Below, piece after piece: positions 27,090-46,195 of a DNA stretch of 64,000 nucleotides. Location of the stretch: assembly GCA_963668175.1 (NCBI GenBank), contig OY764159.1, forward strand, positions 4,416,001 through 4,480,000. Direction: 5' to 3'. Numbering within the stretch: the first letter of the stretch is position 1; the number at the start of each line of letters is the position of its first letter. The notes under the pieces were generated by a model. That model was given only the letters and a program-made list of their open reading frames with translations. It was not told the origin of the DNA and did no database searches. Both the position numbers and the translations under genes were made by a program. This DNA is from Syntrophales bacterium. Its GTDB lineage: Bacteria > Desulfobacterota > Syntrophia > Syntrophales > PHBD01.

Positions 27090-28358
27090 TCAGCGGGTAT
27101 CAAAGAGACAATATTGGTTGCGACCCGATGCCTTGGCCTTGTTCATGGCCATGTCGCTGTTCCTGATCAGTGATTCCGCATCCCTGCCGTGATTGGGAAA
27201 GATGGACACCCCAACGCTCATGTGAATGAATATTTGCTGCCCCTGGACGATGAAGGGAAGCTGAAAGGCGTCCATCACTCTCCTGGCGACCCGGAAAATG
27301 TGATTGACCTGATCGAGCCTGGGGATCAGCGCGATAAATTCGTCGCCACCGAGACGGGCAAGGGTATCCTCCTTCCGTAAGAGAACCTCCAAGCGGCGCG
27401 CAACGGCGTTCAGCAGTTCATCCCCCGCCTGGACCCCCAGGGCGTCGTTGAGATTCTTGAACCTGTCGAGATTCATCATCATGACGGCCAGTTTATGCTG
27501 ATACCTCCCGGCAAAGGAAATGGCCGCCTGCAGCCGGTCACCAAACAGGTGCTTGCCCGGCAGGCCGGTCAGGCTGTCATAATAACCGGTTTTTACCGTT
27601 TTCTCTGCTTTCTCCCTTTGTCCTTCGTCCGTTTCTGAAATATTACCCAGAACAGCCCGTTTCCCCCAATATGAAATGGAAACGACCGTTTCAGTAAACC
27701 AGCGGACATGGCCCTGTTTATCGACAATCCGGTATGCATAGGGGTCCGACCTCTGGCCGGAAAGCATCTTTATTGCGGCCTCTCTGACCGCCGTTTTGTC
27801 TTCGGCATGGATATAATCCGTACTCGCCGATCCGATCAATTCTTCGGCAGTATAGCCCGTATACTCGGTCACGTGCCGGTTGACCATTTTAATGACACGA
27901 TCCTGGAGTATATAGATGCCGGTTTGAAGGACACGACCGATATTACCGTAAAATTCATCGTTCTCTCCCGATCGGGCGGCATCGGTCATGAAGAAGACTG
28001 CAACCGGTTCATCGCGATACGTGATCAGGCTGCCCGTCAGAAGCACGGCGACGCGACTCTTTGACGCTGTTTTCAGAATGACTTGGAAATCAGCAACCCG
28101 TTTCTTTTCCTGCAACAACCCCATCAGGCCATCATAATCTTCGGGATCGCAGAAGAAGCTCAAGGCCGGGCGTCCCGTCATCGCCTGTTGTTCCGTCTCA
28201 AAAAAAGCCGAAGCTTTATCATTGACAAAGATGAGGAGGCCATCGGTCAATCGGCTGACAAGGACAGGATGGGGGGCATGATTGAGCAGGTCGAAGCAGA
28301 TGCCTTCGGGCACAGGCGAGGCCTTGCCTGTGGAGTTCATCGCTACATCGGATTTCAT
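27090..28358 (-). CDS. PAS-PAS-GGDEF diguanylate cyclase
   Basis: YDSLTGLP, DRFKNLND, RLGGDEF, SVGVS, AKASGRN; two N-terminal PAS domains, no TM. Confidence 0.92.
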   Translation of the reverse strand: MKSDVAMNSTGKASPVPEGICFDLLNHAPHPVLVSRLTDGLLIFVNDKASAFFETEQQAMTGRPALSFFCDPEDYDGLMGLLQEKKRVADFQVILKTASKSRVAVLLTGSLITYRDEPVAVFFMTDAARSGENDEFYGNIGRVLQTGIYILQDRVIKMVNRHVTEYTGYTAEELIGSASTDYIHAEDKTAVREAAIKMLSGQRSDPYAYRIVDKQGHVRWFTETVVSISYWGKRAVLGNISETDEGQREKAEKTVKTGYYDSLTGLPGKHLFGDRLQAAISFAGRYQHKLAVMMMNLDRFKNLNDALGVQAGDELLNAVARRLEVLLRKEDTLARLGGDEFIALIPRLDQVNHIFRVARRVMDAFQLPFIVQGQQIFIHMSVGVSIFPNHGRDAESLIRNSDMAMNKAKASGRNQYCLFDTR

Positions 28359-28564
28359 GAAGATCGTCCCTCCGTATGATATAGCTTGTCCTGCGGCGGA
28401 TACGACGACCACGCCGCATGTAACTCCCCTTCCGGCCCCTCACCCGTAACCGTTGAATTTGTCATATAATTGAATGGATAGGAAGTCAAGTTCTGAGATG
28501 GATGTCACGCGGGGAGGCGATGAAAATGACGCGGAAAATCGCGAGCGTCGCAAGGATGCCTATT

Positions 28565-30383: not shown

Positions 30384-30513
30384 ACAAGTCCTTCGACAAA
30401 CGGTTGCCTTCGTAGTTGAAAATGGAATCCGCACTATAACCTTGACAGGCCGTTGTCATATCATATAGCTTTGGCGACATTAACAGAAAACGGCAGCAAC
30501 GCCAAGACCGCTT

Positions 30514-31080
30514 ATGGGAAAATCCTTCAAAAAAGCCAGATTTGCCATCCGCATGATGTTTTATCCGCTGCGCCGGCTCCTGAGAAAAGTCGGCGTCGGA
30601 TATGACGTGGTGACGCTGATCAACGACTATTACCGCGAAGATTTCGACCGGGTTCCAACCAGGGACATGGCCGTGTTGCTTCCCCACTGTCTGATCGACG
30701 AAAAATGTCCCGGCAAATTTTCCAAAGACGACGGCATCATTTGCAGCAAATGCATGAAGTGCAACTGCGGAGACATCAAGAAAATGTGTGAAGAGCGCGG
30801 CATTCAGTTCTATATTTCGCCCAGTTCCGGTTTTTCCCAGCGCCTCGCTCAAAGGAAGAATCTGAAAGCGGCGGTCGGCGCCATCTGCCTGTATGAAGTG
30901 GAGAAGAGTCTGCGGAACATCCGACTTACGGGCCACGGCGTCAGACTGAAATCACGGAAGGTGATACCCCAGATCGTTTTGGCGGCGGAATACGACTGCC
31001 TTAACAACGGCATGGACTGGGACGGCTTAAAAAGAATCATCGATCGTATGTTTTCAAATTCCGCGTCCCCGGTGAAATAA
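30514..31080 (+). CDS. DUF116-family Cys-rich protein
   Basis: LLPHCL, C..C.KC.C and GAIC motifs. Confidence 0.75.
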   Translation: MGKSFKKARFAIRMMFYPLRRLLRKVGVGYDVVTLINDYYREDFDRVPTRDMAVLLPHCLIDEKCPGKFSKDDGIICSKCMKCNCGDIKKMCEERGIQFYISPSSGFSQRLAQRKNLKAAVGAICLYEVEKSLRNIRLTGHGVRLKSRKVIPQIVLAAEYDCLNNGMDWDGLKRIIDRMFSNSASPVK

Positions 31081-31346
31081 AAAATATGAACCGCGCCATA
31101 GCGCTGGCCCCTTCCCTGCCTGGATACATTACTTTTCGATATTATTACTGAATAATCCGCTTTTACGCCGAATTGTTTTTGGTAGAAGTTGCCAAAAAAA
31201 TGTGATACCTAGGCCTGTAAATCAGCAGATGGATTCGTTTTGTAAAGACATCCATGGCCCCGCCCATCCGCTCTCCGAAAAGAAAAGCACAGGGGGAGGG
31301 AGTCGATTCATCGGTCCGATCGCCGTCAACGAAGGAATGGTGTATC

Positions 31347-33599
31347 TTGTTTAAGAAAATCTATTGGTCGGTAAAGAAATGGTGGACCGATGTTCTGGGA
31401 ACCCGTCAGTATTTCCGCTACCTGGAGAAGGAAGACCGCAGGAGGCGCCTGGCCGGCCAATTCCTGACATTCATCAGTATCACGCTGGGCGTTATTTACC
31501 TTGTCTGGCATTGGCAGCATATCAACTGGGATGTCTGGTATTATTCATTTGCATTCTTCATTGCTGAGCTTAACGGCTTAATCCTCTTTTCCTTCTTTTC
31601 CTTCAACGCCTGGTTTCTGAGATATCACGAACCGGCCGGCCTTGCCGAAGAGAGATCCTATTCCGTCGACGTATTCATTCCCGTCGCCGGAGAACCCATC
31701 CAACTCGTCAGAAAGACGGTCGAAGCCGCCCTGAATATCGATTTTCCCAACAAAAAGATTTACATCCTGGACGATAAAGAGAGCGAAGCCTACCGGCAGC
31801 TTGCCGAAGAGACCGGATGCGGCTATTTTGCCCGAAAGGAACACAGCAATGCCAAGGCAGGCAATCTGAACTATGCGTTCAAACGAACCGACGGCGACCT
31901 GATCCTGGCCCTCGACGCCGACCAGGTCCCGTATCCTGATATTGTGAACAAGCTTGTCGGATACTTCAAGATTCCGAAAATCGCTTTTGTCCAGACCAAA
32001 CAGAATTTCGAAGTTCCGGTCGGCGATCCGTTCGGCAATACGGACCGTATATTTTATAACGTCATGCAAAGCGGCAAGGACAACGATAATTCGGCGTTTT
32101 CCTGCGGTTCGGGCGTCATCTACCAAAGGGAGGCGCTCCAGGAAATCGGCGGTTTCAGCACGTGGAACCTCGTCGAAGACGTCCACACATCCATGCTTCT
32201 GCATGAACGGGGCTGGCGTTCTGTTTATTACAACCACCCCCTGACCAAAGGAACGGCCCCTGCGGATATCTACGGCGTCTATACCCAGCGCCGGCAATGG
32301 GCAGCCGATTCCCTGAGGATTATGTTCTGGGACAATCCTTTCTTTCACAAGGGGCTCAGCTTCAAACAGAAGCTGCAGTATTTCCATCTGGGTTTTGTCT
32401 ATCTGGTCGCCGCTTTCGTCATGCCCTTTTTCTTCATCACGCCCATTTTGGCCCTGCTCGTACAGGAATTCGTCCTCACGTCGCCCGTCGCCACTTACGT
32501 CATCCACCGGTTCCCCTATTTCATTGCTATGTCGATGGCCTACGGTCTGATCAACTATCCGACACCCTACATGAAGGCGTTTCAGATGTGGACAGGCCTC
32601 TTCCCCCCTTTCATCCGGGCGACATGGATGGCGCTCCTTTCGAGAAAAAAGAAGCCGACGTACCGCGTCAACGTCAAACCGGGGGCAAAGAAGAAAAGAA
32701 GGAAGAGTCCCTGGATTGCCGTCATTCCCCAACAGGGAATCATCATTCTCGCGATCTTCGCCATGATTTACGGTTTCATCGAATGGGAGAACAAATCTTG
32801 GGATTTTTACATCCTGAACTGCATCTGGGCATTCTGGTCCATCTGGACCATGAGCGGGATATGCATTGCCGCCGTCAAGAAGCATAAGTGGCCGGAAGAG
32901 GATGCGGCAGGAACCAAGAAGCCCGTGCCTTTCTTTTCCCGGATCGGGGAGCTGGTTTTGACGGTCGTCCTGTCGGCCGGTGTCCTCGTTTTCTTTACGC
33001 TTGGAGATATGACGGAAGTCAATAAATTCATGACGAGTTTCCGTCTGGAAGTCCTGACGACGGTCGGAATCGAAAAACCTGTTGCGAAAATCGGCCAGGC
33101 GATTTCTCCGCAAACACCTGCAACGGAAGCGGGTATGAGTGCCACGGTCCTTTCGCCGTCCAAGGTCCAACCCGTTCCGCTCCAGGAAAAGAAGGAAGAA
33201 ACCCCTTCATCTCCAGCGCCGGCCGTACCGGTTCAGACGACCGTAGCCCAGGAGAAAACGGCCAGCCCACCGCCCCCCCCGGAGAAAAAGAAGGAAGAAG
33301 TCTTAAAGACGGACGGCGACTGGGCGGTGCAGGTGATTGCCGTACACACCAAGAAAGCAGCGGACGAGCAAAAGGCGAAACTTAAGGCAGCCGGCTTCAA
33401 CGCATACACGTATCAGCCGCCGTCGAACGTCAGAAAGAAAAAGAAGCCCTGGGTCCGGGTTTTTGTAGGTTTTTACGCAAGCAAGGAAGATGCCCAAAAG
33501 GCCGGAGAGAAAATCCGGGAAACGGTATTCCCGTCCAAGAAGCCGTACTGGAGCGTCAGATTTTCGCCCAAGGATAAGGAGATGCTCGCTGGAAATTGA
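31347..33599 (+). CDS. Processive GT2 polysaccharide synthase (cellulose-synthase-like) fused to a C-terminal SPOR domain
   Basis: LDD, AKAGNLN, LDADQ, SCGSG, VED and QRRQW motifs; multiple TMs; Pro/Thr/Glu linker; SPOR-like WAVQV...WVRVFVGFY.S.EDA. Start uncertain (31254 or TTG 31347). Confidence 0.85.
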   Translation: MFKKIYWSVKKWWTDVLGTRQYFRYLEKEDRRRRLAGQFLTFISITLGVIYLVWHWQHINWDVWYYSFAFFIAELNGLILFSFFSFNAWFLRYHEPAGLAEERSYSVDVFIPVAGEPIQLVRKTVEAALNIDFPNKKIYILDDKESEAYRQLAEETGCGYFARKEHSNAKAGNLNYAFKRTDGDLILALDADQVPYPDIVNKLVGYFKIPKIAFVQTKQNFEVPVGDPFGNTDRIFYNVMQSGKDNDNSAFSCGSGVIYQREALQEIGGFSTWNLVEDVHTSMLLHERGWRSVYYNHPLTKGTAPADIYGVYTQRRQWAADSLRIMFWDNPFFHKGLSFKQKLQYFHLGFVYLVAAFVMPFFFITPILALLVQEFVLTSPVATYVIHRFPYFIAMSMAYGLINYPTPYMKAFQMWTGLFPPFIRATWMALLSRKKKPTYRVNVKPGAKKKRRKSPWIAVIPQQGIIILAIFAMIYGFIEWENKSWDFYILNCIWAFWSIWTMSGICIAAVKKHKWPEEDAAGTKKPVPFFSRIGELVLTVVLSAGVLVFFTLGDMTEVNKFMTSFRLEVLTTVGIEKPVAKIGQAISPQTPATEAGMSATVLSPSKVQPVPLQEKKEETPSSPAPAVPVQTTVAQEKTASPPPPPEKKKEEVLKTDGDWAVQVIAVHTKKAADEQKAKLKAAGFNAYTYQPPSNVRKKKKPWVRVFVGFYASKEDAQKAGEKIRETVFPSKKPYWSVRFSPKDKEMLAGN

Positions 33600-33600
33600 A

Positions 33601-34497
33601 ATGCCGGATAGATGCATCGGCCTTTATCTGCCGGAAGATTTCACGGTATCTGTACAAAAGGCCGCTCAGTATCAAACGTCGTGGGCAAAGCGAATTGCGA
33701 TACTCTCCTTTTTTACGGCATGGGGAAACGGATTCGAAAATCCCGACCTGACGGGGATCGAACTGGCCGCGCGAAACGGTTATCTGCCGATGATAACCTG
33801 GGAGCCCTGGCGGTATCACGATCCGTCGAACGCCGGAAAACCGGAAGACCAGCCCGATTTTTCGCTCTCTGAAATCCTGAAAGGCAGGTATGATGCCTAC
33901 CTTCGGCGGTGGGCCGCGGATCTTGCGGCTTTAAGAAGCCCCATCCTGTTCCGTCCGATGCACGAGATGAACGGTAATTGGTATCCATGGTGCGGAACGG
34001 TCAACGGAAATCGTCCGGAAGCGTATGCAGAAACGTGGCGCTACATCCGCTCCATTTTCCGCGAAGAGGGAACCGGCCCATTGATATGGGTTTGGTCTCC
34101 TTACGCGCATTCCGTCCCGGACGAGTCGGGCAACGAAATGGATCTTTACTACCCCGGCAACGGGGAGGTGGACTGGCTTGGTCTGGACGGTTATAACTGG
34201 GGAGACAGCCGTCCCTGGTCGCGGTGGCAGAGCTTCGATGAAATCTTTCAAAAAGGGTACGATTGCCTGGTAAACCTCGCGCCTGAAAAACCGCTTATGA
34301 TTGCCGAGACGGGATGCGCGGAGGAAGGGGGCGACAAGGGCAGGTGGATCGCCGAAGCAGCGGAAATACTGACAGGACGGTTCCCTCAGATCAAGGCGTT
34401 GATATGGTTCAACACGAATAAGGAATGCGACTGGCGCATCGATTCGTCTCCTGAAAGTTCGCAAGCCTTCAGGGATCATTGGAACTGGAGTCATTAA
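33601..34497 (+). CDS. Glycoside hydrolase family 26 (mannanase/lichenase-like)
   Basis: ITWEPW, RPMHEMNG (acid/base Glu), YYPG..VDWLGLDGYN, MIAETG (nucleophile Glu). Confidence 0.88.
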   Translation: MPDRCIGLYLPEDFTVSVQKAAQYQTSWAKRIAILSFFTAWGNGFENPDLTGIELAARNGYLPMITWEPWRYHDPSNAGKPEDQPDFSLSEILKGRYDAYLRRWAADLAALRSPILFRPMHEMNGNWYPWCGTVNGNRPEAYAETWRYIRSIFREEGTGPLIWVWSPYAHSVPDESGNEMDLYYPGNGEVDWLGLDGYNWGDSRPWSRWQSFDEIFQKGYDCLVNLAPEKPLMIAETGCAEEGGDKGRWIAEAAEILTGRFPQIKALIWFNTNKECDWRIDSSPESSQAFRDHWNWSH

Positions 34498-34528
34498 CGA
34501 TCAATAACGGATTGCAAAAGGACGGGCT

Positions 34529-35287
34529 ATGAGAGATCAAGCATGGGTGCATAGGCAGGACATAAAAATCGGGCGATGGTTTTTTCTATGGTTATTCTTA
34601 TTTCTAACACTTGCTTCCGCCCGTTCATCTTACGCCCTGGATTTTTCGACATTCGCCGGAGGAGAAATCGACGGTCGCAATCAGGGATTCTCTTATCTCG
34701 GCTTCGAGTTGGCCCAGAAGATCACGAATCACGTCGCCGTTGCCGGGAGGGTCACTCCGAGCTACCTCGTTTACAAATACTATTCGGGTGACACGATCAT
34801 TCGAGCCACGTCGCCGGGGATCACCCCTGTGGCTGGTCTCAAATTTTCCTGGGAGAAAACATCTTTCGGCATCTTCGGCGGAGGGGAATTCAGAAACACG
34901 ACGTTGAGTCCCGATGATCAAAATGCGTCCGTAAGGGGGGCCTCATCGGCAGGAGTCGTTCAGGGCGAATTCGACCACTGGTTCCCGACCAAGACAAACT
35001 TCAGCGTCTGGGGGAGCTACAGCGGAACGAGCGATTTTTCTTATGAAAAGGCCAGGATCAAGCAGCAAATTACCAACTTGGACTACAAAGGGCCAGTGAA
35101 TCTTATGGTCGGAATTGACCAGACCTACGGGAGAAACGCGGATTTCCATGGAATAACGGTAGGCCCGATGGTCGAGATGTACTACATCCCCTGGAAAGTC
35201 TCGGTTGCGCTGCGGGGCGGGTATAAGCACGATTCGACCTTCGGAGGCGGAGGCTACGGCGGTATTGAATTGTATAAAGGATTCTAA
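34529..35287 (+). CDS. Outer-membrane beta-barrel protein, BcsS-like
   Basis: Signal peptide (..SYA|LD), alternating amphipathic strands rich in G/Y, C-terminal Phe (IELYKGF). Confidence 0.6.
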   Translation: MRDQAWVHRQDIKIGRWFFLWLFLFLTLASARSSYALDFSTFAGGEIDGRNQGFSYLGFELAQKITNHVAVAGRVTPSYLVYKYYSGDTIIRATSPGITPVAGLKFSWEKTSFGIFGGGEFRNTTLSPDDQNASVRGASSAGVVQGEFDHWFPTKTNFSVWGSYSGTSDFSYEKARIKQQITNLDYKGPVNLMVGIDQTYGRNADFHGITVGPMVEMYYIPWKVSVALRGGYKHDSTFGGGGYGGIELYKGF

Positions 35288-35345
35288 TTTTCGGGAACGA
35301 TGAACGCCTGCCGGAAGAGGCTGGAGACGCGTTTTGACGTAAGAT

Positions 35346-35362
35346 TGTAAGATTTTTTTACA
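35346..35362. promoter_or_regulatory. Enhancer-like palindrome (TGTAA-N7-TTACA) upstream of the PEP-CTERM gene
   Basis: TGTAAGATTTTTTTACA, about 210 bp upstream of a sigma54 motif. Confidence 0.55.
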
Positions 35363-35571
35363 AAATCGAAAAAGAGCAAATTTATCTTCAATTACAGATC
35401 CTTTAATCTCCCAAAAGCCGCTGGGCGAACCGACGGCGTCAGCTATCTTTACGGTGCATGACTATGATTTACGCATAGTTGTGCACATTATTACTTCTCC
35501 AAACAATCAAATATCATACATATGGGGCAGTTAGCCACCGGAGACCACTGATACTGGAGGAACCCTAGGGG

Positions 35572-35587
35572 CGGCATATTTATTGCA
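35572..35587 (+). promoter_or_regulatory. Sigma54 promoter of the PEP-CTERM gene
   Basis: CGGCATATTTATTGCA with GG-N10-GC spacing. Confidence 0.65.
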
Positions 35588-35637
35588 ATTATTTACATAA
35601 TTCGAATCAAAGAAATCCTTCACAGGGGGAATATATC

Positions 35638-36366
35638 GTGAATATATTCAAAAGATTATTTCTTATTTTAACTTTCCTGGCTATCACAACAGGCCTCGGA
35701 ACAGGAACGGCCTTCGCTTATCAGATTTATATCGACGGCAGGGACGATGCCGGGACATACGGGGGCGAACAAGCCTTTGTCACTTTAATGTATGACGGCG
35801 GATCTATGCCTGTCACAACGGGTGACGCCGCAACACGCTGGACCAGCCAAGCCGAAGTATGGGCCTATGCAGGATCAAAAAATGTCGCCAACCTTAACGC
35901 ATGGATTAAATCCGCCGGAAACATCTGGTCATCAGATACGACGGTCGGAGAGTCATTGACCGGGCTCTCGGCCGGCACTTACCACATCACTCCGGTACAG
36001 GCCACTTATCTGGCTTTTCAGCGGGACACCTTCAATTGGAGTAATTACTACGGAAAATACTGGTGGGAATTGAAGATCACTGCTACGAATGTTTACGTAG
36101 GCGGAACACATTATGACTCCTATGACTTCACCCTTGGAACCAACCTCGGATACGATACAGCGTCATTAGCTTTCGATTCGGTTCTGAACAGCTATCTGGA
36201 CGTCATCCTGGGAGACGGAGGAACGCTCACCTTCTGGATATACGATGACGGCACCGTCGACAACGCCGGAGGACTTTCCGTGGAAATAACGATGGTCCCC
36301 GAACCCTCGACGCTGCTTTTATTGCTGCTCGGCGTTCCCTTTGTCTTAAGAAAATTCCGGAAATAA
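35638..36366 (+). CDS. PEP-CTERM sorting-domain surface protein
   Basis: Signal peptide (TAFA|), low-complexity G/T/Y/D-rich body, C-terminal VPEPSTLLLLLLG...RKFRK. Confidence 0.92.
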   Translation: MNIFKRLFLILTFLAITTGLGTGTAFAYQIYIDGRDDAGTYGGEQAFVTLMYDGGSMPVTTGDAATRWTSQAEVWAYAGSKNVANLNAWIKSAGNIWSSDTTVGESLTGLSAGTYHITPVQATYLAFQRDTFNWSNYYGKYWWELKITATNVYVGGTHYDSYDFTLGTNLGYDTASLAFDSVLNSYLDVILGDGGTLTFWIYDDGTVDNAGGLSVEITMVPEPSTLLLLLLGVPFVLRKFRK

Positions 36367-36392
36367 ATCATCGTTTCAGGAGAACAAAAAAT

Positions 36393-36434
36393 AAAAGGGG
36401 TTGGCTCTCGTTAAACGGTAACCAACCCCTTTTT
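36393..36434. terminator. Bidirectional intrinsic terminator
   Basis: AAAAGGGGTTGG...CCAACCCCTTTT between convergent genes. Confidence 0.75.
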
Positions 36435-36576
36435 GTATCGTCCTTAAACGTCCTCAACACGTATCCAAAATCGCCGGCTTCATACCGGAACCCCCGGGCG
36501 ATTCACCACACGAAAGCTTTGCTCTTAATCAATCCAAGCCGTACCAATATATCGGCGCTGCTTGCGGCATTCTCCA

Positions 36577-37635
36577 TCAAAGTGGTCCCCGCTTTTCCCC
36601 GTGGATTTTCCGTGACGTTTCAATGAGTTTCGATATGATCATCGAGGGCAGCATGCCGGCGCTTGCCGCCTGCTCGAAGAAGAACGAAGACGGGGCCATG
36701 CCGGACGACGAGTTCGGATCGGTGACAAGGACGCGGCCTGAAGACGGGAGATAAAACCCGTCGATCCTGCCGTAGGAGCGGAAACCGAGCGTATGGTAAG
36801 CACGGATAACCTCCTTTTTGATCTTTTCAACCACGTCGGGAGCAAAATTTTTCGGCGGCGTAAACTTCCGGCACCTGCCGGGCATATACTTGTCGTCATA
36901 GGTGTAATAATCGCTCTGGGGATGGATTTCCGTCAATTCCAGGGGGACGGCGTCGCCGTCCATTTCGAGAACGATGCACGAAAACTCCGTCCCGTCGAGA
37001 AATTCCTCGACGAGGACCGCATTGTCCCACTTGAGCGCCTCACTGATCCCTTTACCCATATCGGCAACATCGACGATCTTCGTAACGCCGATACTGGACC
37101 CCTCCCGCGTCGGCTTCGTGACGAAAGGAACATGGAACTGTCCCGTGATCCGGGCGATCACCGACGCTTTGTCGCTTTCCCACTCAGACCGACGGACGAC
37201 ACAGCTTTCAGGTACATCGATCCCCGCATTCCTGAGCAGCATCTGCTGCATATGCTTGTCCATACCCAGGGCCGAAGCAAGTACTCCCGGCCCCGTATAG
37301 GGAATGCCCAGGAGTTCGAGAAGCCCTTGGATGCATCCGTCATCCCCATACTTGCCGTGGAGTGATATGAAAGCGAAATCGATCACTTGTTTAAGGTCTT
37401 CGTAAGCGATCCGGCGGGCCTCCCGGTCAAGGTGCTCCGAGATATCGACGGTCGTGTTCTGGGAAATGAGCTGCCAGGGAACGAGCCATAAGCGGCCTTC
37501 ATGATCCATGAAAAGGGGGACCGGCTCGTAGTATTCCCTGTCCATATTATCGTAGACATTTCTGCCGCTGTTTAAGGACACCTCCTTTTCCGACGACATA
37601 CCGCCAAAGATGATACCGACTCTCAATTTGTCCAT
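36577..37635 (-). CDS. ddl: D-alanine--D-alanine ligase family ATP-grasp enzyme
   Basis: FGGMSSEKEVS, LHGKYGDDGCIQG, MDK, KPTREGSSIG, YDDKY, RID. Confidence 0.85.
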   Translation of the reverse strand: MDKLRVGIIFGGMSSEKEVSLNSGRNVYDNMDREYYEPVPLFMDHEGRLWLVPWQLISQNTTVDISEHLDREARRIAYEDLKQVIDFAFISLHGKYGDDGCIQGLLELLGIPYTGPGVLASALGMDKHMQQMLLRNAGIDVPESCVVRRSEWESDKASVIARITGQFHVPFVTKPTREGSSIGVTKIVDVADMGKGISEALKWDNAVLVEEFLDGTEFSCIVLEMDGDAVPLELTEIHPQSDYYTYDDKYMPGRCRKFTPPKNFAPDVVEKIKKEVIRAYHTLGFRSYGRIDGFYLPSSGRVLVTDPNSSSGMAPSSFFFEQAASAGMLPSMIISKLIETSRKIHGEKRGPL

Positions 37636-37769
37636 GGGATGCCATTCCCCTCCTTCATTTCTTTTTAAGCAAATCTTCTCAGGACCATCTTCCTGCAGCC
37701 GGCAAGACGGTACGGCATACCGGCAATACGAAGCCCGAGCGGCACAAAGGGTTCCGGCCCGGTTCGATG

Positions 37770-38642
37770 TCAATAACGCCGGGCAACGACGATGACGTAT
37801 TGATCCTGGAAATTTTTATTGATGTGCGCAAGCACGCTACCGGGGCAATCCCTCATGAAGAGGCAGATCCCGCCGGCCGTAGATGAATCGAAGTAGCCAT
37901 AATCGTTAACATAATCATGAATATGCTCATGCCCTACGGCCTTTTCCCAGATATTTCTTTCGTCTTCCCGGACGGCCAGACCAAAGGCCAGATGCGTCGG
38001 TGACGGCCGCGACTCGGATGCAAGCCATGCCATGGCGGCTTCACGCGACGGGAACGACCTGACGGCGATCAATTCGCCGATGGCTCCGTCTTTCGAGGAG
38101 CGGAAGTAAAGCCAACAGCTTCCTTCCACGTGTTTAACGCTTTCGTAAGGCAGGTCGTATTTTCGCTCGAAATGCACTTCCGACAAATTGACTTCGTCCA
38201 CTCCGCCGATAAGCGCGCTGTGCACCAGGCCTATTCCCATATCGGCCTTCAGAAGCTCCAGCCCCCTTTCGAAGGAAAGATTCTGGCTGGAGATGGAAAT
38301 GTTCCGCCCTTCCACGTTCAGCCCCTGGGATACGTAAAAAGAGGCCGTATTCGACATCGTATTGATAAAATTATAGGGCATGGGCAGAGATTGCTTCCTG
38401 TATATCTGGTGGAGAACATTCTCCGTGTCCCCCAGATTGCCTCTTTCCGTCGTGAGATAGACAGATGTCCTGCGGTCCAGATCTTTTCCGAAAACGGACT
38501 TATGGGCGCCGATCAGGGACAGGATGACGAACTTGTTGACGCGGCGGAAATGGACCTCGGTATAGCGTTTCAGTTCGTCCTTTAAAACGTGACCGTCCTT
38601 GACCGGTGCCGTGAGAAATATCGAGAATGAATGGATGAACAT
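37770..38642 (-). CDS. Ketosynthase-like partner / chain-length-factor (non-catalytic)
   Basis: RRVNKF, PYNFINTMSNTAS and GGVDE; no Cys-His-His triad; directly follows a KS. Confidence 0.7.
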   Translation of the reverse strand: MFIHSFSIFLTAPVKDGHVLKDELKRYTEVHFRRVNKFVILSLIGAHKSVFGKDLDRRTSVYLTTERGNLGDTENVLHQIYRKQSLPMPYNFINTMSNTASFYVSQGLNVEGRNISISSQNLSFERGLELLKADMGIGLVHSALIGGVDEVNLSEVHFERKYDLPYESVKHVEGSCWLYFRSSKDGAIGELIAVRSFPSREAAMAWLASESRPSPTHLAFGLAVREDERNIWEKAVGHEHIHDYVNDYGYFDSSTAGGICLFMRDCPGSVLAHINKNFQDQYVIVVARRY

Positions 38643-38643
38643 C

Positions 38644-39798
38644 TCAATCCTTGTTCGAAACGACGAGGGAAGTGCAATTCCCGCCAAAACCGAAATAGTT
38701 GAACATCAGGGTGGCGTTTCCCATGGTCAGGTTGTCCGTTACCGGCGTTATGCCCAATTCTTCGTCGCTCGTCTGAAAACCGGGAGTCGCGGGCAGGAAG
38801 CCGTTTTTGACCGCCTCGGTGACAATGATCATCTCGATGACCCCCGAAGCCCCGACCGTATGGCCGACATAAGGTTTGATGCAGGTAACCGGGGGCATTC
38901 GGTTTCCGAAAACAGACTTCATACCGTTGCACTCCGTTCGGTCGTTGCTGTCGCTCCCGGTGGCATGGGCCTTGACGGCGTCGATGTCCACGATTTCTAC
39001 GCCCGCATTGGCCATCGCCTGACCAATGACTTCGGCGATCCAACTTCCCTCGATCGTGTGGCTGGTGACGTTAAACGTGTCGCACAGATTCGCCCCCCCT
39101 CGAATGCGGAAACCGTTTTCGTCCCCGCTTCCCGTATCAAGAATCAGCGCACCGCACCCTTCCCCCATGATAATGCCGTCCCGGTATTTATCGAACGGTT
39201 TGTAGAACGTCTGCGACATGAGTTTAAGGGCTTCGAACCCGTAAAAGCCGGTATTGTTGAACAGGTCATACCCGATGACAAGAGCCCTCTCGATCATGCC
39301 CATTTTGATCATTTGAGAGGCATAGAGGATCGCATTGGCGCTGGACGTACAGGCCGTCGTAAATGTGTAGCACGGCCCGGTGATTCCGAAGCGTCTCGTC
39401 ACTTCCGCCACGAGGGACCCATACCCCAGCGATGCATTGGAAAAATAGTGCGTGCCGTTGACGTCCGATTTTTCATAGTAACTTTCATAGATGGGAATAT
39501 CGATGGACGTGGAACCGAAAAAGACGGCCAGGTTCTTCGTTTCGGATTCTGAAAGGCCCGCGTCCTCTATAGCCCTGGCGATCGTATCGAAGAGGACATC
39601 GTAAAAGAAGGTCTCGGCGCTCCCTCCCCGATTCCGGCGAATACGGTAATAGGGCCTCGAATAGGGAAGCTGTACATGGCTTAAAGGGATGTTCTCCGTG
39701 CAAACATATTTGTCCTTCACGCGGGCAACGACCTCTCCGATATCTTCGCCGAGAGAACAGACAATCGCCCTGCCGCGTATGAAAACATTCCTGTCCAA
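38644..39798 (-). CDS. Beta-ketoacyl-ACP synthase
   Basis: TACTSS, HATGS, KPYVGH, FGFGG; TTG start. Confidence 0.92.
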   Translation of the reverse strand: MDRNVFIRGRAIVCSLGEDIGEVVARVKDKYVCTENIPLSHVQLPYSRPYYRIRRNRGGSAETFFYDVLFDTIARAIEDAGLSESETKNLAVFFGSTSIDIPIYESYYEKSDVNGTHYFSNASLGYGSLVAEVTRRFGITGPCYTFTTACTSSANAILYASQMIKMGMIERALVIGYDLFNNTGFYGFEALKLMSQTFYKPFDKYRDGIIMGEGCGALILDTGSGDENGFRIRGGANLCDTFNVTSHTIEGSWIAEVIGQAMANAGVEIVDIDAVKAHATGSDSNDRTECNGMKSVFGNRMPPVTCIKPYVGHTVGASGVIEMIIVTEAVKNGFLPATPGFQTSDEELGITPVTDNLTMGNATLMFNYFGFGGNCTSLVVSNKD

Positions 39799-39802
39799 GC
39801 GA

Positions 39803-40075
39803 TTACTCCGGTTGAATATAATCGGCGAAGGCGTTGATGGATGTCATGACCCGCCTCATTTCCTTGCTGTCCGTAATCGTGATGCCAAACCGGTTCTGGA
39901 TGGCAATCGATATCTGCAGGGCATCGATGGAATCAAGTCCCAGTTTCGACTGGCTGCCGAAAAGCGGTCCCTCGTCGTCAATATCCGCGGCGCTTATCCT
40001 GTCGGCCAAATCGCACTCCTCGACAATCAGCGTCTTCAATTCGATCTTCAGCTGTTCATCCAATGAACCTCTCAT
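39803..40075 (-). CDS. Acyl carrier protein
   Basis: PLFG...LGLDSIDALQI. Confidence 0.92.
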   Translation of the reverse strand: MRGSLDEQLKIELKTLIVEECDLADRISAADIDDEGPLFGSQSKLGLDSIDALQISIAIQNRFGITITDSKEMRRVMTSINAFADYIQPE

Positions 40076-41313
40076 ACACTATGGCCTCTTTCAAATTGAT
40101 TCTTGAGAATGATCATTGTTATCACGAGCATGATCAAACCGAAAAGTATAAGCGATAGGGATTTTATCAAAACATCACCGACGCCTCCGTGTCTCAGGAA
40201 CACGTCGAGGAAGCCTTCCAGACCCCAGGACATCGGGGATATGATCGACAATTTCTGCATAAACTCGGGCATGACAAACGTCGGCACCATGATGCCTCCG
40301 ATGGCGGCAAAAATAACGTGCATGACGCCGCTTACGGTGGTGGCCTGCTCCGTTGTTTTCGCCAGCGACGAAATCAGGAGCGCCAGGGAAATCGCGCTGA
40401 AACTGACGCTGGCCGCGATCAGTAACAACCCTCCGAAGGAATCGCCCAGGGTCAGCGCCTGGCCGCCCAGGAGAGGAACGGCATACATGCCGACCATGAT
40501 CATGAGGAAGACCTGGGTCATGTTGATCAGGAAATAGGGCAGAAATTTTCCGAAGAGGAGATAACCCTTCGATACGTTCATGCTGATCATGCGGATCAGG
40601 GTTCCCTGATTTTTTTCCGTGATGAACGTATTGGCGATCGGCATGGAGATGAAGAACATGGCAAAGACAAGCCAGGCCGGCACGGACTGCTGAACCGCGG
40701 AAGGGACGGCGGCAGCCTGCTTATCTTTGTAAACATAACGGATTTCCAGGGCAGGATCGTCGGATACCAGGAGATTCCTTTTCAGGGCTTTCCGGTCGAC
40801 CTTGGCGTAATCGAGCAAAGTGCCTATATTGTCCACGAAAGCGCCGAATCTTAATTTCCCCATGCTGGCGCTTATCGCCTCCTTGAAGACGGCCTGCGTC
40901 TGGGTGCTGACGATGGGATTTACCAACATCAAGAGAGGTTTCCTGCTTTCGTTGACGTTCTTACTTTCCACCACGGCGGTAAAATCTTCCCCGATGATGA
41001 TGGCGAATTTGAAGTTCTCCGCCAGCATCCGGCTGCGTAAGCCTTCCGCATCGACCTTCCCGTTTACGGGATGGACCACGAATGCGCCGATTTTTCCAAG
41101 ATTCTCCAGAAAGAGCTTCGACTCTCCGCCCTTGTCGTTATCGGCCACCAGGACGTGTATCTGCACCTTCGTATGCCCGGCAAACAACTCCCCCATTGCC
41201 ATGGACATAACCATGATGAAGGCCGCCGGCAACAGAAACAAGAGGATCAGCGACGGGATATCCCTGCCGATGATCAGGAATTCCTTTTTCAGGACGTACC
41301 GTATTTTATTCAT
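40072..41313 (-). CDS. ABC-2 type exporter permease
   Basis: N-terminal TM, periplasmic domain, QQSVPAWLVFAMFF, EKNQGT, GGIMVP, SPMSW. Confidence 0.88.
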   Translation of the reverse strand: MNKIRYVLKKEFLIIGRDIPSLILLFLLPAAFIMVMSMAMGELFAGHTKVQIHVLVADNDKGGESKLFLENLGKIGAFVVHPVNGKVDAEGLRSRMLAENFKFAIIIGEDFTAVVESKNVNESRKPLLMLVNPIVSTQTQAVFKEAISASMGKLRFGAFVDNIGTLLDYAKVDRKALKRNLLVSDDPALEIRYVYKDKQAAAVPSAVQQSVPAWLVFAMFFISMPIANTFITEKNQGTLIRMISMNVSKGYLLFGKFLPYFLINMTQVFLMIMVGMYAVPLLGGQALTLGDSFGGLLLIAASVSFSAISLALLISSLAKTTEQATTVSGVMHVIFAAIGGIMVPTFVMPEFMQKLSIISPMSWGLEGFLDVFLRHGGVGDVLIKSLSLILFGLIMLVITMIILKNQFERGHSV

Positions 41314-42226
41314 CTCTCAGATGGGCATGGGTCAGCTTTAAAAAAAGTTCTTCAAGGTTCTCGGAACCAAAAGAAATTTTTCTTATCACAAGACGGTTCT
41401 CTTCTAAAAGAGAAAAGACTTGGGTTAAATTCCCTTGAAATTTTTCATTTTTATCAATTCTAATATGTCCCGCACCGGCGTCTACGCCCGGAATGCGTTT
41501 CAACAACTCTGCGATTTTGTCATCGAGGCCTTCCACGCTGATCTTCATGACGGCAGCACGGTTCAACACGTCGTTTTTCCGGCCGTGCAGAACGATCTTT
41601 CCGGCATCGAGAATGGCAATATCGTCGGAAACCTGCTCGATCTCATCCATGTAATGAGACGTATAAACAATGGTCGTCCCCCGTTCTTCCCGGATGTTCT
41701 TTATCATTTCCAGCATATAGCTTCGCGATTGGGCATCGACGCCTACGGTGGGCTCATCGAGATAAAGGATCTGGGGATCGTTGAGCAGGCCGATGGCGAG
41801 GTTCAACCTCCTTTTCATGCCGCCGGAAAACTTGGCGACAGCCTTATTCACAAAAGACTGGAGGCTCGCGATATCGATCGATCGTTCAATCCGGTCCTTC
41901 ATCGTCTTCCCCTTCAATCCATACAGAGCACCGAAATATTCAAGATTTTCATAGGCTGTCAGCGTGGGATAAAGGGCCAGGGTTTGGGGAACGATGCTGC
42001 TGATTGAGCGAATCCCGTCCGGCTCCCGGTCGAGGGAGAGTCCGTTGATCATCACTTGCCCGCTGTCTTTGGCGATCAACGCCATAAGAATGGAGATCAG
42101 GGTGGTCTTGCCGGCGCCGTTCGGACCCAATAAGCCGGTTATCACCCCCCTGCGAACGGAGAGCGTGACGCGATCGACGACCTTAACGTTGTCATAGGAC
42201 TTACAGAGGTTTTCTATCTCTATCAT
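41306..42226 (-). CDS. ABC-2 exporter ATP-binding protein
   Basis: GPNGAGKT, FSGGMKRR, YLDEPT, TSH, LEELFL. Confidence 0.93.
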   Translation of the reverse strand: MIEIENLCKSYDNVKVVDRVTLSVRRGVITGLLGPNGAGKTTLISILMALIAKDSGQVMINGLSLDREPDGIRSISSIVPQTLALYPTLTAYENLEYFGALYGLKGKTMKDRIERSIDIASLQSFVNKAVAKFSGGMKRRLNLAIGLLNDPQILYLDEPTVGVDAQSRSYMLEMIKNIREERGTTIVYTSHYMDEIEQVSDDIAILDAGKIVLHGRKNDVLNRAAVMKISVEGLDDKIAELLKRIPGVDAGAGHIRIDKNEKFQGNLTQVFSLLEENRLVIRKISFGSENLEELFLKLTHAHLRDE

Positions 42227-42495
42227 ACGGTTTAAGCGTTCAGCGAAGCAGGAAGACTTCCAATCCTTTTTACGGTTCCCGAAGGACGCTTCGGTCATAT
42301 TTTGTAAAATGTCGGTAAGCATAGGGAAAGAAAGTCCGGATGTCAATATTATTCGGCCGGGCACTGAAACAAACAACATTAAGAGGCAATTCCTTAAGCG
42401 GGATAGAATCTTAATAAGTTGTTGAGAAAATGGAAACGATGCGGTATGACATTTCCCGTTGCTTGATTAACCCGTCCTCAAAAGGATCATCAGCC

Positions 42496-44064
42496 ATGAA
42501 AAAGGATCTATCTAACAATGCCGATCAGGTCGGGACAGTCACCGTCGGCAAGGGAATCGTTTCCCTGGAGAAGATTATATCCGTCGCCAAAAACGAGGCG
42601 GCAGTACAGGTGAGCTCCGAACGGCGCTTCATCAACCGCATGACCCAGTCTCAAGATCAGCTCAAACGGTCCCTCGCAAACGACGTACCCGTTTACGGCG
42701 TGAACACCGGTTATGGAAAATCCTGCGGCAAACGTCTCTCGATGAAGAAAGCCAGCTTCTTAAATGTCAACCTCCTGCGCTTTCACGGATGCGGAACAGG
42801 TGAACCGATCGGCATCGAAGCGACCCGCGCCGCCATCCTTTGCCGCATGATTTGCCTGGCGAAGGGCTACTCTGGCGTTTCCATTGCCCTTCTGGAGAAA
42901 ATGGCCGAGTTTCTTAATCATGATATCATCCCTGTCGTGCCATGCGAAGGTTCCGTCGGCGCGTCCGGCGACCTCACCCCCATGTATTACATCCTGGCCT
43001 GCCTGGCCGGAGACGGGGAGGTCTTTTACCAGGGAAAGCGAGTGGCCACCAAAGTCGCCTTGAAAAAGGCCGCAATTAAACCGCACTCATTCCAACACAA
43101 GGAACCGCTTTCCATGCTCAACGGCACGACGGTCATGACCGGCATCGCCGCCATGGCTGTCGACAGGGCGCAAAGAATCCTCCATGCGGCCATATGCGCC
43201 TCCGCCCTGACCGTCCATGCCTTGAAGGGCCACGTCCATCATTTTCATCCCGTCATCGGCGAAGCCAAGCCTTTTCCCGGCCAGATATTTGTCGCCGACA
43301 GTCTGACCGGACTGCTCCACACCAAGGGGGACCTTGCCAGCATGGAGGCAGACACCGTAGAAACGCTACAGGACCCCTATTCGGTACGATGCAGCCCCCA
43401 GATTCTCGGCGTTCTCCACGATGCCCTGACCTGGGTCAGGGCCTGGGTCGAACAGGAAGCGAACAGCTCCAACGACAATCCCATCTTCGATCCCGCGACG
43501 GGGAAACCGCTTATGGGAGGCAACTTCTACGGCGGGTATATCTCCTTCGCCATGGACGGCTTAAAGACGGCCATCGCGTCCGTCGGCGACATGTCCGACC
43601 GCCAGGTCGCATTGCTCGTCGATCCCCACCAGAACCGCGGGCTCCCTGCGGACCTGGTCCGCGAAAACGGCGATCCGCATCTCCTTCGGCATGGTTTCAA
43701 GGCCATGTCCATATCGACGTCGGCACTGGCTGCTGAAGCCCTCAAAGGCACCATGCCGGCAGGCTCATTTTCCCGGCCGACCGAATCCAACAATCAGGAC
43801 AAGGTGAGCATGGGCACCATCGCCGCAAGGGACGCCGAGAGGAATTGCACGCTCGTGGAACGCATCGTCGCCATTCACCTTCTTGCCGCCGCCCAGGCCT
43901 GCGAGATTCGCGGCGCCTATGGCATACGTCCGAAACTTGCCGCACTCGTCAAGAAGATCCGCACCATCGCCAAAGAGACGATCGAGGACCGTCATATGGA
44001 CAAGGATATCGATCGCGTGGCGAAAGCCATCACCGAAACCGATTTGTTTGTCTTAAGGAAATGA
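42496..44064 (+). CDS. Aromatic amino-acid ammonia-lyase (HAL/PAL/TAL family, MIO-dependent)
   Basis: YGVNTGYG, GSVGASGDL (ASG MIO), NGT, QDPYSVRC, NDNP, NQDKVSMG. Confidence 0.93.
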   Translation: MKKDLSNNADQVGTVTVGKGIVSLEKIISVAKNEAAVQVSSERRFINRMTQSQDQLKRSLANDVPVYGVNTGYGKSCGKRLSMKKASFLNVNLLRFHGCGTGEPIGIEATRAAILCRMICLAKGYSGVSIALLEKMAEFLNHDIIPVVPCEGSVGASGDLTPMYYILACLAGDGEVFYQGKRVATKVALKKAAIKPHSFQHKEPLSMLNGTTVMTGIAAMAVDRAQRILHAAICASALTVHALKGHVHHFHPVIGEAKPFPGQIFVADSLTGLLHTKGDLASMEADTVETLQDPYSVRCSPQILGVLHDALTWVRAWVEQEANSSNDNPIFDPATGKPLMGGNFYGGYISFAMDGLKTAIASVGDMSDRQVALLVDPHQNRGLPADLVRENGDPHLLRHGFKAMSISTSALAAEALKGTMPAGSFSRPTESNNQDKVSMGTIAARDAERNCTLVERIVAIHLLAAAQACEIRGAYGIRPKLAALVKKIRTIAKETIEDRHMDKDIDRVAKAITETDLFVLRK

Positions 44065-44113
44065 GGCATCATACAGCCACAGCAAGATATTATAACGCGA
44101 ACAGGAGGGAAGA

Positions 44114-44719: not shown

Positions 44720-44737
44720 ATCGCCTAGAACATAAAG

Positions 44738-44771
44738 ACGGGAAGGGCTGCCGCCGCGCCCTTCCCGTTTT
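44738..44771. terminator. Intrinsic terminator between convergent genes
   Basis: ACGGGAAGGGC...GCCCTTCCCGT followed by TTT. Confidence 0.75.
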
Positions 44772-44790
44772 CTGTATCAACATTCCCCAG

Positions 44791-46137: not shown

Positions 46138-46195
46138 CGTGACACCTCCACAATGTTCGGGGATTGCCTCTCCATGGATGAACCGCACCGGACGG

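Follow-up and report, generated by a model that had tools for sequence, protein, structure and literature searches.

A 64,000-nucleotide stretch of DNA from a Syntrophales bacterium (contig OY764159.1, positions 4,416,001 to 4,480,000; hereafter the window) carries a cassette of four genes that, on balance, we read as a synthase-dependent exopolysaccharide module, in which a beta-glucan would be exported by a synthase tied to peptidoglycan. The synthase is a BcsA-like member of glycosyltransferase family 2 (GT2) that ends in a SPOR domain, and it is followed by a member of glycoside hydrolase family 26 (GH26), an outer-membrane beta-barrel, and a PEP-CTERM protein. This SPOR-tailed synthase cassette is real and is apparently an undescribed variant of the bacterial polysaccharide export machinery. 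Its genes are as follows (window coordinates).

31347..33599, forward strand: gene 1, BcsA-like GT2 synthase with a C-terminal SPOR domain (750 amino acids, TTG start; Pfam and NCBIfam)
33601..34497, forward strand: gene 2, leaderless GH26 enzyme resembling CtLic26A (298 amino acids; predicted catalytic residues Glu122 and Glu236)
34529..35287, forward strand: gene 3, BcsS-family (PF17036) predicted 12-stranded outer-membrane beta-barrel with a signal peptide and a C-terminal Phe (252 amino acids)
35638..36366, forward strand: gene 4, conserved PEP-CTERM protein (242 amino acids, GTG start)

Open reading frame (ORF) listing and translation of the window showed that genes 1 to 4 are co-directional and recovered the same coordinates for the three tightly linked genes, with gaps of 1 and 31 bp, that a first-pass annotation of this DNA had described. 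Genes 1 and 2 meet at the junction AAGGAG...TGA-A-ATG, in which the gene 2 ATG lies 1 nt past the gene 1 TGA, and the 31-nt gap separates genes 2 and 3. The unit is not limited to three genes, as that annotation had it, since the fourth conserved gene (PEP-CTERM, 35638-36366) had been overlooked. The TTG at 31347 was preferred as the start of gene 1 over an alternative upstream ATG at 31254 because the N termini of the homologues begin at the same place (28-sequence alignment). The same gene set recurs in other genomes, so the linkage of the three genes is far beyond chance; readings of the cassette as an assembly artefact or as chance ORFs were ruled out by conservation in the homologues and the genome loci.

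A scan of species-representative genomes yielded 41 loci, all in metagenome-assembled genomes (MAGs) and not including the window's own locus, and the conservation of the cassette was assessed by tblastn of the window proteins against them. The GH26 gene was directly downstream of the GT2 gene, or fused to it, in 36 of the 41 loci, of which two run into contig ends that cut them. The loci with both genes belonged to the Thermodesulfobacteriota, Nitrospirota, Binatia, Methylomirabilota, Gemmatimonadota, Eiseniibacteriota, and Actinomycetota. The five loci without GH26 were L034 and four Chloroflexi loci (GT2 identity only 37-40%). Twelve loci had a homologue of gene 4 within the cassette at E ≤5e-12, and 7 more, mostly from Nitrospirota, had weak matches (E 1e-4 to 5e-8). 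The genes flanking the cassette varied between loci, suggesting that the cassette is autonomous. The description of a "minimal" system in the first-pass annotation therefore understated the case, because GT2 plus GH26 is a widespread core module that spans several phyla.

Gene 1 matched the Pfam families GT2 (PF13641; E 1.1e-22, residues 108-319) and Cellulose_synt (PF03552; E 6.2e-10), and no match to PilZ (PF07238) was found in it by Pfam even at E 0.1. Hydropathy and an AlphaFold model agreed on seven membrane helices, two before the GT domain, four after it, and then a seventh, which is one beyond the six that align with BcsA TM3-8. The parts of the protein are arranged as follows.

31449..31604, forward strand: membrane helices 1-2 (residues 35-86), corresponding to BcsA TM3-4 (hydropathy; model helices 27-57 and 61-88)
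31632..32336, forward strand: predicted cytoplasmic GT-A catalytic domain, about residues 96-330 (motifs, 28-member alignment, and alignment with BcsA and BgsA)
32286..32300, forward strand: QRRQW (residues 314-318), a QRxQW variant of the QxxRW signature (28-member alignment)
32361..32879, forward strand: membrane helices 3-6, interface helix, and gating-loop motif YRVNVK (439-444), corresponding to BcsA TM5-8 (alignment, hydropathy, and model)
32931..33002, forward strand: extra seventh membrane helix, residues 529-552 (hydropathy 2.19; model helix 529-552)
33009..33311, forward strand: predicted periplasmic helix 555-573 and disordered linker 578-655 rich in Pro, Lys, and Glu (model)
33312..33587, forward strand: SPOR domain, residues 656-747, with Gln662 in strand 1 (WAVQV) (PF05036 and model)

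The GT-A domain contained the motifs DDK (142-144), AKAGNLN (169-175), DADQ (190-193), FSCGSG (251-256), and VED (276-278), which were invariant across the 28 family members and aligned with those of BcsA and BgsA. The fourth GT2 motif, Q(Q/R)xRW, was altered: DDK, DADQ, and VED are kept, but gene 1 has QRRQW, with Gln in place of Arg. Q314, R315, Q317, and W318 were invariant in all 28 aligned family members, which gives the family the signature QRxQW, not QxxRW. Both Escherichia coli plasmid BcsA and Sinorhizobium meliloti BgsA have QRxRW, and the actinobacterial fused relatives have QRLRW. In BcsA, the Arg of QxxRW, the residue that is replaced in QRxQW, contacts the nucleotide.

The cytoplasmic loop between helices 6 and 7 of gene 1 is only 22 residues long, and the loops rich in Lys and Arg fall on the predicted cytoplasmic side. 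The last channel helix of BcsA ends in the cytoplasm, where PilZ comes next. Because one more helix follows the six BcsA-equivalent helices in gene 1, its C terminus is predicted to be periplasmic; by analogy with the topology of BcsA, and with the basic loops inside, residues 553-750 would lie in the periplasm. The first-pass annotation had described a GT2 protein without PilZ that instead has an extra membrane helix, a Pro-rich linker, and a SPOR-like domain, and had expected the SPOR domain to be periplasmic. Pfam, hydropathy, and the model agreed with this description, and the topology check placed an odd extra helix before a SPOR domain that is predicted to be periplasmic by homology to BcsA. 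The seventh helix was also present in most of the 545-residue relatives without SPOR (28-member alignment), suggesting that its role is not merely to carry SPOR. BcsB gives BcsA an additional membrane helix and is required for activity, according to the available text of PMC10237404, and plant CesAs are described as needing no BcsB and having an extra C-terminal helix (available text of PMC10374906). By analogy, and as a speculation, helix 7 might replace the membrane helix of BcsB in cis.

The SPOR domain matched PF05036 with E 4.4e-14 (53 bits, cut-off 21; residues 656-724). It was modeled as an RNP-like beta-alpha-beta-beta-alpha-beta fold over residues 658-747, with strands at 658-666, 686-689, 703-710, and 735-739 and helices at 669-681 and 713-726. 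The predicted local distance difference test (pLDDT) score was 81-89 in most 10-residue blocks, with a dip at 696-698, and was below 50 over most of the linker 578-655, which has 15 Pro in 78 residues. The NCBIfam models of FtsN and DedD gave weak partial matches over the linker and SPOR, and the SPOR segment alone gave only marginal matches in the PDB (CwlC and DamX, E 0.11-0.25). FtsN, DedD, DamX, and RlpA share with gene 1 a membrane anchor, a flexible linker, and a C-terminal SPOR domain, which in gene 1 is predicted to be periplasmic like theirs. However, none of them is a polysaccharide synthase, whereas the SPOR domain of gene 1 is appended to a polytopic enzyme.

A homologue search of 5.8 billion clusters returned 1484 homologues of gene 1, and PF05036 was present in 41 of the best 120 of these 1484 clusters. 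The homologues included NCBI records titled "SPOR domain-containing protein [Syntrophales bacterium]", and the SPOR segment was found in 12 of the 41 genome loci. This search by domain architecture, which the first-pass annotation had named as a check, indicated that the fusion is no artefact. In a maximum-likelihood tree of the synthase core (residues 35-520, 28 sequences), all 13 SPOR proteins fell into one 18-member clade with support of 100/99, and SPOR was probably gained once at the base of this Syntrophales-type clade and later lost or exchanged. Five of the 18 proteins lack SPOR: one of 509 amino acids ends before helix 7, one has a Cds6_C NTF2-like domain in the place of SPOR, and there are three others. 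SPOR therefore appears to be dispensable for the core function. Two tandem SPOR copies were present in three relatives. At L032 (9088-9140), no stop separates the end of SPOR from the start of GH26, which share one frame, but 16 codons upstream of the GH26 ATG there is a stop; the junction reflects a truncated SPOR or else an error of sequencing in this long-read MAG.

The SPOR domain could send the synthase specifically to the division septum, so that the glycan would be deposited at the septum or the new poles, a proposal that we regard as less likely than not. SPOR domains that have been characterized attach to denuded glycans that are enriched at septa and target the divisome (available text of PMC6895207 and bioRxiv 10.1101/2022.07.01.498525), and a conserved Gln and a basic patch are given as the few residues critical for this binding (PMC6895207, in part). 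The SPOR domain of gene 1 retains the strand-1 Gln, and its weak NCBIfam similarity to FtsN and DedD is consistent with a septal role. However, the Gln was replaced by His in 3 of the 13 SPOR-bearing family members (by eye, 28-member alignment), and the absence of SPOR from 5 of the 18 clade members, one of which has the NTF2-like domain instead, argues against a strictly septal function. The PEP-CTERM partner and the outer-membrane barrel also suggest a surface matrix rather than a septal deposit. The loss of SPOR within the clade and its exchange for the NTF2-like domain also fit a general wall tether.

An ordinary cellulose synthase, which would make beta-1,4-glucan with GH26 replacing BcsZ and with BcsB and BcsC encoded elsewhere, is unlikely, although the BcsA-BcsB/BcsZ/BcsC system is the closest sequence and fold match to gene 1. 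The closest solved relatives were E. coli BcsA (7lby, E 1.1e-56) and Rhodobacter (Cereibacter) BcsA (E 1.8e-40), and the model superposed best on E. coli BcsA (9b8v_E; TMq 0.60, root-mean-square deviation 2.8, 510 columns). Both systems have a processive GT2 with its own channel and gating loop, the DDx/DxD/xED motifs, an operon glucanase, and an outer-membrane barrel. Gene 1 contains AKAGNLN, FSCGSG, and the gating-loop motif, the Pfam family of gene 3 is named "cellulose biosynthesis", and databases label the relatives "cellulose synthase (UDP-forming)". However, gene 1 scored far under the NCBIfam cut-offs for cellulose-synthase equivalogs (TIGR03030, 274.6 bits with a cut-off of 699.1; NF008558, 222.8 with a cut-off of 992), and the match covered residues 35-520 only (profile positions 55-574 of 714). 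Its identity was 25-28% to BcsA and 25-27% to S. meliloti BgsA, and by this measure it is no closer to BgsA than to BcsA.

The composition of the cassette also differs from that of the Bcs systems: it has no PilZ, BcsB, or TPR-containing BcsC, it has the invariant QRxQW in the place of QxxRW, and it has a SPOR tail. Gene 1 has only two N-terminal helices and one extra C-terminal helix in comparison with BcsA. The hydrolase is a leaderless GH26 (clan GH-A) of the lichenase branch, whereas BcsZ is a periplasmic GH8, and the barrel of gene 3 has 12 strands, whereas that of BcsC has 16. As the first-pass annotation had stated for bcsB and bcsC, neither gene accompanies the synthase within the 64-kb window, and bcsD and bcsZ were not found there either. 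A scan of 57 further ORFs of the window revealed no BcsB, BcsC, or TPR family, and no BcsB was found in six related loci. A further point against cellulose is that the extra helix could stand in for the membrane helix of BcsB described in the available text of PMC10237404. Taken together, the cassette resembles a synthase-dependent machine and, as judged from its sequence, fails the cellulose tests of score cut-offs, PilZ, and BcsB, with QxxRW altered; a non-cellulose beta-glycan product is plausible.

Gene 3 matched PF17036 (CBP_BcsS) with E 3.8e-11 (43.5 bits, cut-off 24; profile positions 3-204 of 207), and this family was present in all 80 gene 3 homologues found. Both profile checks suggested by the first-pass annotation, for SPOR and for BcsS, thus gave scores above the cut-offs. 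The model of gene 3 consisted of a signal helix and a 12-stranded barrel (pLDDT 90.8, predicted template modeling score 0.77, 48-row alignment), in agreement with the earlier view that the third gene encodes a small BcsS-like outer-membrane beta-barrel. Foldseek returned only generic barrels (autotransporter and intimin beta-domains and OmpG), and a sequence search of the PDB with gene 3 gave no match. The name BcsS comes from bcsABZC-type cellulose operons and was reportedly introduced by Roemling and Galperin in 2015; with no bcsB, bcsC, bcsD, or bcsZ in the window, gene 3 lies outside such an operon. BcsS is listed as a type I accessory in the available text of PMC8892547. No functional study of BcsS was found in the literature searched, in which the two papers that mention both BcsS and bcsA (PMC8892547 and PMC9693552) name BcsS only in passing.

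A BcsS-like gene was present in 16 of the 41 loci, after GH26 or before GT2. Just upstream of GT2, four loci (L015, L016, L018, and L019) had a 781-residue protein composed of TPR and a barrel, with a C terminus (...YRF) like that of outer-membrane proteins, and seven (L025, L027, L028, L031, L033, L034, and L039) had a 356-residue barrel homologous to the C-terminal part of the 781-residue protein. Profile comparison revealed no relationship of the BcsS-like family to the TPR-barrel and 356-residue barrel families (probability 0.1-0.3%). The outer-membrane barrel is exchanged between clades, and the core is GT2 plus GH26. The presence of a barrel of some type beside GT2 in most of the sampled diderm clades supports an export role for gene 3. 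No TPR scaffold for synthase-dependent secretion was found in the window, where the barrel is present; the TPR part occurs in the 781-residue protein of the sister clade.

Gene 4 encodes a signal peptide and a beta-rich domain of about 190 amino acids, followed by VPEPS, a membrane helix, and a basic tail; the C-terminal PEP motif, helix, and tail read VPEPSTLLLLLLGVPFVLRKFRK. Its score passed the cut-off of TIGR02595 (19.4 bits, cut-off 16) and was just under that of PF07589 (20.0, cut-off 20.7). P221 and P223 were invariant in 14 aligned sequences, and the conserved motifs of the mature domain were DDAG, SAGNIWS, and FWI.D...IDN.G. Gene 4 shares with PEP-CTERM/exosortase proteins such as PepA the signal peptide, the VPEPS-helix-basic tail arrangement, and a weak resemblance to the flocculation protein floc_PepA (E 0.0026, below the NCBIfam cut-off). 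It differs from PepA-type proteins in that no exosortase was found in the 64-kb window and its mature domain matched no named family; a search of the ESM Atlas with gene 4 returned only other PEP-CTERM clusters.

The match of gene 2 to PF02156 (E 4e-17; 63 bits, cut-off 20.2), which covers only the middle of the protein, agreed with the first-pass assignment of the partner hydrolase to GH26 rather than GH8. Over residues 23-292, gene 2 aligned with the GH26 module of Clostridium thermocellum endoglucanase H, CtLic26A (PDB 2v3g, 2bv9, and others; E ~5e-51). Glu122 and Glu236 aligned with E109 and E222 of the CtLic26A chain and were invariant in 27 aligned cassette GH26 enzymes. Because the catalytic Glu residues are invariant and the match to CtLic26A is near full-length, gene 2 probably encodes an active enzyme that is glucan-directed, not mannan-directed. 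CtLic26A, which was reportedly first described by Taylor et al. in 2005, shares this near full-length homology and both catalytic Glu residues with gene 2, but it is a secreted degradative module of the cellulosome, whereas gene 2 is leaderless, stands alone, and is coupled to a synthase. The 2BV9 structure is called a beta-1,3/1,4-glucanase in the available text of PMC10470212.

The GH26 enzyme is not a simple periplasmic substitute for BcsZ, because gene 2 has no export signal. Hits of at least 150 amino acids were obtained in 32 non-actinobacterial loci; in these, no hydrophobic segment was seen in the upstream in-frame sequence (by eye), and GH26 begins 3-12 residues ahead of its first conserved strand (M..GLYLP or MKFGIY). 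Leaders were assessed by Kyte-Doolittle hydropathy (11-residue window, first 45 residues; no signal-peptide predictor was used), and a mean of at least 2.0 was reached by none of the 36 GH26 ORFs, 11 of 14 BcsS-like proteins, and all 16 PEP-CTERM proteins; the 36 include four actinobacterial GH26 ORFs that were called from starts within their leaders. The GH26 start abuts or overlaps the GT2 stop, typically by -11 to +5 nt.

Among the best 120 of 348 long relatives of gene 2, 20 were GT2-GH26 fusions, 25 (about 540 amino acids long) carried PilZ with GH26, and 15 further proteins carried PF06452, which we take to be CBM9-like; others had SLH (one protein) or peptidoglycan-binding domains. The three PilZ-GH26 proteins inspected (P0254, P0303, and P0315) consist of PilZ, one membrane helix, a coiled coil, and GH26, an Alg44-like layout with the sensor of cyclic di-GMP (c-di-GMP) on the hydrolase partner. 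In the Thermoleophilaceae loci L036 and L038 (~6680-9295), GT2 (with QRLRW), the extra helix, a linker, and GH26 form one ORF (872 amino acids in L038). GH26 occupies the position of the gene 1 SPOR domain in these fusions, outside the membrane, and a second GH26 with a signal peptide lies downstream. P0211, a single metagenome sequence of 766 amino acids, is a leaderless GH26 fused to a UDP-glucose pyrophosphorylase, with no membrane helix, and could be an assembly or frameshift artefact. We counted the P0211 fusion for a cytoplasmic role of GH26, and the L036/L038 fusions and the three PilZ-GH26 proteins, with GH26 outside the membrane, against it.

A cytoplasmic GH26 would be expected if no polymer were secreted, with the synthase and a retaining GH26 transglycosylase making short, cyclic, or remodeled beta-glucans in the manner of NdvB and the small barrel exporting oligosaccharides. 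Twelve-stranded barrels suit small solutes, GH26 was leaderless in all 32 non-actinobacterial loci inspected, and P0211 is fused to a cytoplasmic enzyme. Moreover, NdvB and the pseudomonad "Orphan" BcsA-like proteins, in which a PilZ-less GT2 is fused to a GH17 transglycosidase, are proposed as cyclic-glucan synthases (available text of PMC10237404); they parallel the GT2-GH26 fusions in that a BcsA-like GT2 is tied to a retaining glycosidase of clan GH-A, although the glycosidase is GH17, lies at the N terminus in NdvB, and is accompanied by no SPOR. We nevertheless consider this explanation quite unlikely, given that gene 1 retains the whole BcsA-type channel with its gating loop, that GH26 lies outside the membrane in the Actinomycetota and, as judged from the three inspected, in the 25 PilZ-GH26 proteins among the best 120 relatives, and that a PEP-CTERM partner points to a polymer of the matrix. 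Synthesis of beta-mannan or glucomannan is very improbable: although most characterized GH26 enzymes are mannanases, gene 2 matches the Pfam GH26 family, and several databases label its relatives "beta-mannanase", the best mannanase match covered about 100 central residues at E 3.6e-11 and the others were weaker, in contrast to the CtLic26A match, and one relative is a fusion to UDP-glucose pyrophosphorylase. Of the substrates listed for GH26 in the first-pass annotation (beta-mannan, mixed-linkage glucan, and beta-1,3-xylan), the glucan branch was therefore supported and mannan was not.

For the wall-tied exopolysaccharide module that we favor, we infer the sugar, linkage, wall binding, export route, and accessory roles from the domain content, topology logic, conservation, and catalytic residues found here. 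The cytoplasmic GT-A domain of gene 1 would polymerize a UDP-sugar, with UDP-glucose the most likely donor, and the chain would, by homology, pass through the six-helix channel of the same protein. The seventh helix, conserved in most of the family, would put the last 200 residues in the periplasm, where the unstructured linker of about 80 residues would let SPOR bind the glycan strands of peptidoglycan and fix the synthase to the wall. The tethered synthase might sit at septa and new poles or simply beneath the outer-membrane exit, for which the 12-stranded barrel of gene 3 is the candidate. The gene 4 PEP-CTERM protein would accompany the polymer at the surface or in the matrix, probably for aggregation, and gene 2, as a retaining lichenase-type GH26, may trim, release, or remodel the chain. 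The glucan option is favored because GH26 groups with the lichenase CtLic26A; because gene 2 is of this type, a beta-glucan with 1,3/1,4 junctions would be expected rather than pure cellulose or mannan, and the polymer is possibly a mixed-linkage beta-glucan.

Several observations weigh against this module. The quality of the gene 1 model was moderate (mean pLDDT 74.3, 28-row alignment), its scores against the cellulose-synthase models were far under the cut-offs, and the QRxQW substitution means that synthase activity or the donor could differ. Five of the 18 SPOR-clade proteins do without SPOR, and L010 has SPOR and GH26 with no barrel or PEP-CTERM gene nearby. Known polysaccharide porins have 16-18 strands, so the 12-stranded barrel is smaller, and its fold matches were generic (TMq ≤0.50). 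With none of the 36 GH26 ORFs hydrophobic at the start, periplasmic trimming is unsupported for this cassette.

Two bacterial systems make a mixed-linkage beta-glucan without BcsB. BgsBA of S. meliloti, which acts with TolC, is described as making a mixed-linkage, non-cellulose beta-glucan (available text of PMC5567048 and PMC13438883), and shares with gene 1 a PilZ-less BcsA-like GT2. However, BgsA has QRERW and a cytoplasmic c-di-GMP-binding C terminus, whereas gene 1 has only the 22-residue cytoplasmic loop ahead of helix 7; the cassette has no counterpart of the HlyD-type adaptor BgsB, and no hydrolase is encoded in the bgs operon. RiGT2 of Romboutsia ilealis is a single GT2 that makes (1,3;1,4)-beta-glucan, but it needs a C-terminal PilZ and comes from a monoderm host, and no SPOR, GH26, or barrel partner is mentioned in the available text (PMC10374906). 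More generally, the cassette has in common with the synthase-dependent exopolysaccharide systems for cellulose, alginate, poly-N-acetylglucosamine, and Pel an inner-membrane processive synthase.

A literature search (full text, with most subscription journals outside its coverage) found no combination of SPOR with a cellulose-like synthase and no GT2-GH26 synthase module, in line with the first-pass annotation, which knew of no described system with this architecture. The sole match for "SPOR domain" together with "cellulose synthase" concerned aphid and Buchnera peptidoglycan genes. An Actinoplanes cluster that contains GH26 (PMC13390465) is of the Wzx/Wzy type and unrelated.

No c-di-GMP receptor (PilZ, Alg44, PelD, or PgaCD) was recognized in genes 1 to 4 by Pfam and NCBIfam, and Rfam revealed no riboswitch, for c-di-GMP or otherwise, within 30400-36800 (E ≤1) and nothing at the gathering score across the window. 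The c-di-GMP independence of the synthase proposed earlier rests on this absence of a recognizable receptor or riboswitch in the cassette and is unproven. The conserved N-terminal segment EKEDRxRRL (28-member alignment) might be a c-di-GMP site, but this is purely speculative. A gene for a PAS-PAS-GGDEF diguanylate cyclase (27093-28412, reverse strand) lies 3 kb upstream of the cassette. It was rejected as a regulator of the cassette because its position next to the cassette is not conserved in six other loci.

The 350-nt spacer between genes 3 and 4 (35288-35637) contains a promoter-like site (35619-35648) and the following element.

35454..35486, forward strand: hairpin in the spacer of genes 3 and 4, with a stem of 13 bp and a T-rich run after it (consensus scan only)

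The number of sites in the promoter and terminator scan of the region was not above that in shuffled sequences, and this hairpin alone was worth noting. It is a possible attenuator or terminator, and gene 4 may be transcribed separately from genes 1 to 3.

Elsewhere in the window, the region 13952-20975 (forward strand) encodes a class-III aminotransferase, an SDR protein, an acyl-carrier protein, a nitroreductase, a ketosynthase, a class I/II aminotransferase, and an AAA_26 (dethiobiotin-synthetase-like) protein, and resembles a small pathway of the fatty-acid or biotin type. The region 36577-50428, immediately downstream of the cassette, encodes an ATP-grasp protein (D-Ala-D-Ala-ligase-like), three ketosynthases, an ABC-2 exporter pair, an enoyl-CoA hydratase, and an AMP-ligase, together with an aromatic amino-acid ammonia-lyase (42430-44064), and is possibly a secondary-metabolite cluster. 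A gene for a DUF3141 protein (E 1.5e-235; 11266-13458, reverse strand) adjoins a TRAP transporter DctM/DctP pair (8343-11124, reverse strand).

The cassette is common in uncultured anaerobes, and its architecture, GT2-GH26 core, leaderless lichenase-type partner, and QRxQW signature are solid observations. The bacterial mixed-linkage-glucan synthases found in the searched literature were of the BgsA and RiGT2 kinds; GT2 plus GH26, found across seven or more phyla, would add a third kind, possibly the most widespread, if this reading is true. A more far-reaching version, which we regard as improbable when all of its parts are taken jointly, would make GT2 plus GH26 a widespread undescribed class of bacterial beta-glucan synthase. 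In this class, a QRxQW synthase would need no BcsB or c-di-GMP, as helix 7 would replace the helix of BcsB. The leaderless Lic26A-type enzyme would be an obligatory cytoplasmic subunit, acting as a transglycosylase or chain terminator and setting the 1,3/1,4 pattern or the chain length, instead of a periplasmic "BcsZ". In the Syntrophales, SPOR would clamp the machine to denuded peptidoglycan at division sites, and daughter cells would be glued by mixed-linkage glucan and a lectin-like PEP-CTERM protein, which could underlie the aggregation of syntrophs.

A SPOR-tied synthase would be a new way across the diderm envelope without a TPR scaffold and, if it is septal, would also exploit the division-site glycan mark in a new way. 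The leaderless GH26 and QRxQW are concrete anomalies that could reveal the control of linkage or chain length, and the cassette, being small (four genes, about 5 kb) and self-contained, is suited to heterologous expression. The organisms that carry it are syntrophic anaerobes, either uncultured or slow to grow, and their aggregation is important in methanogenic granules.

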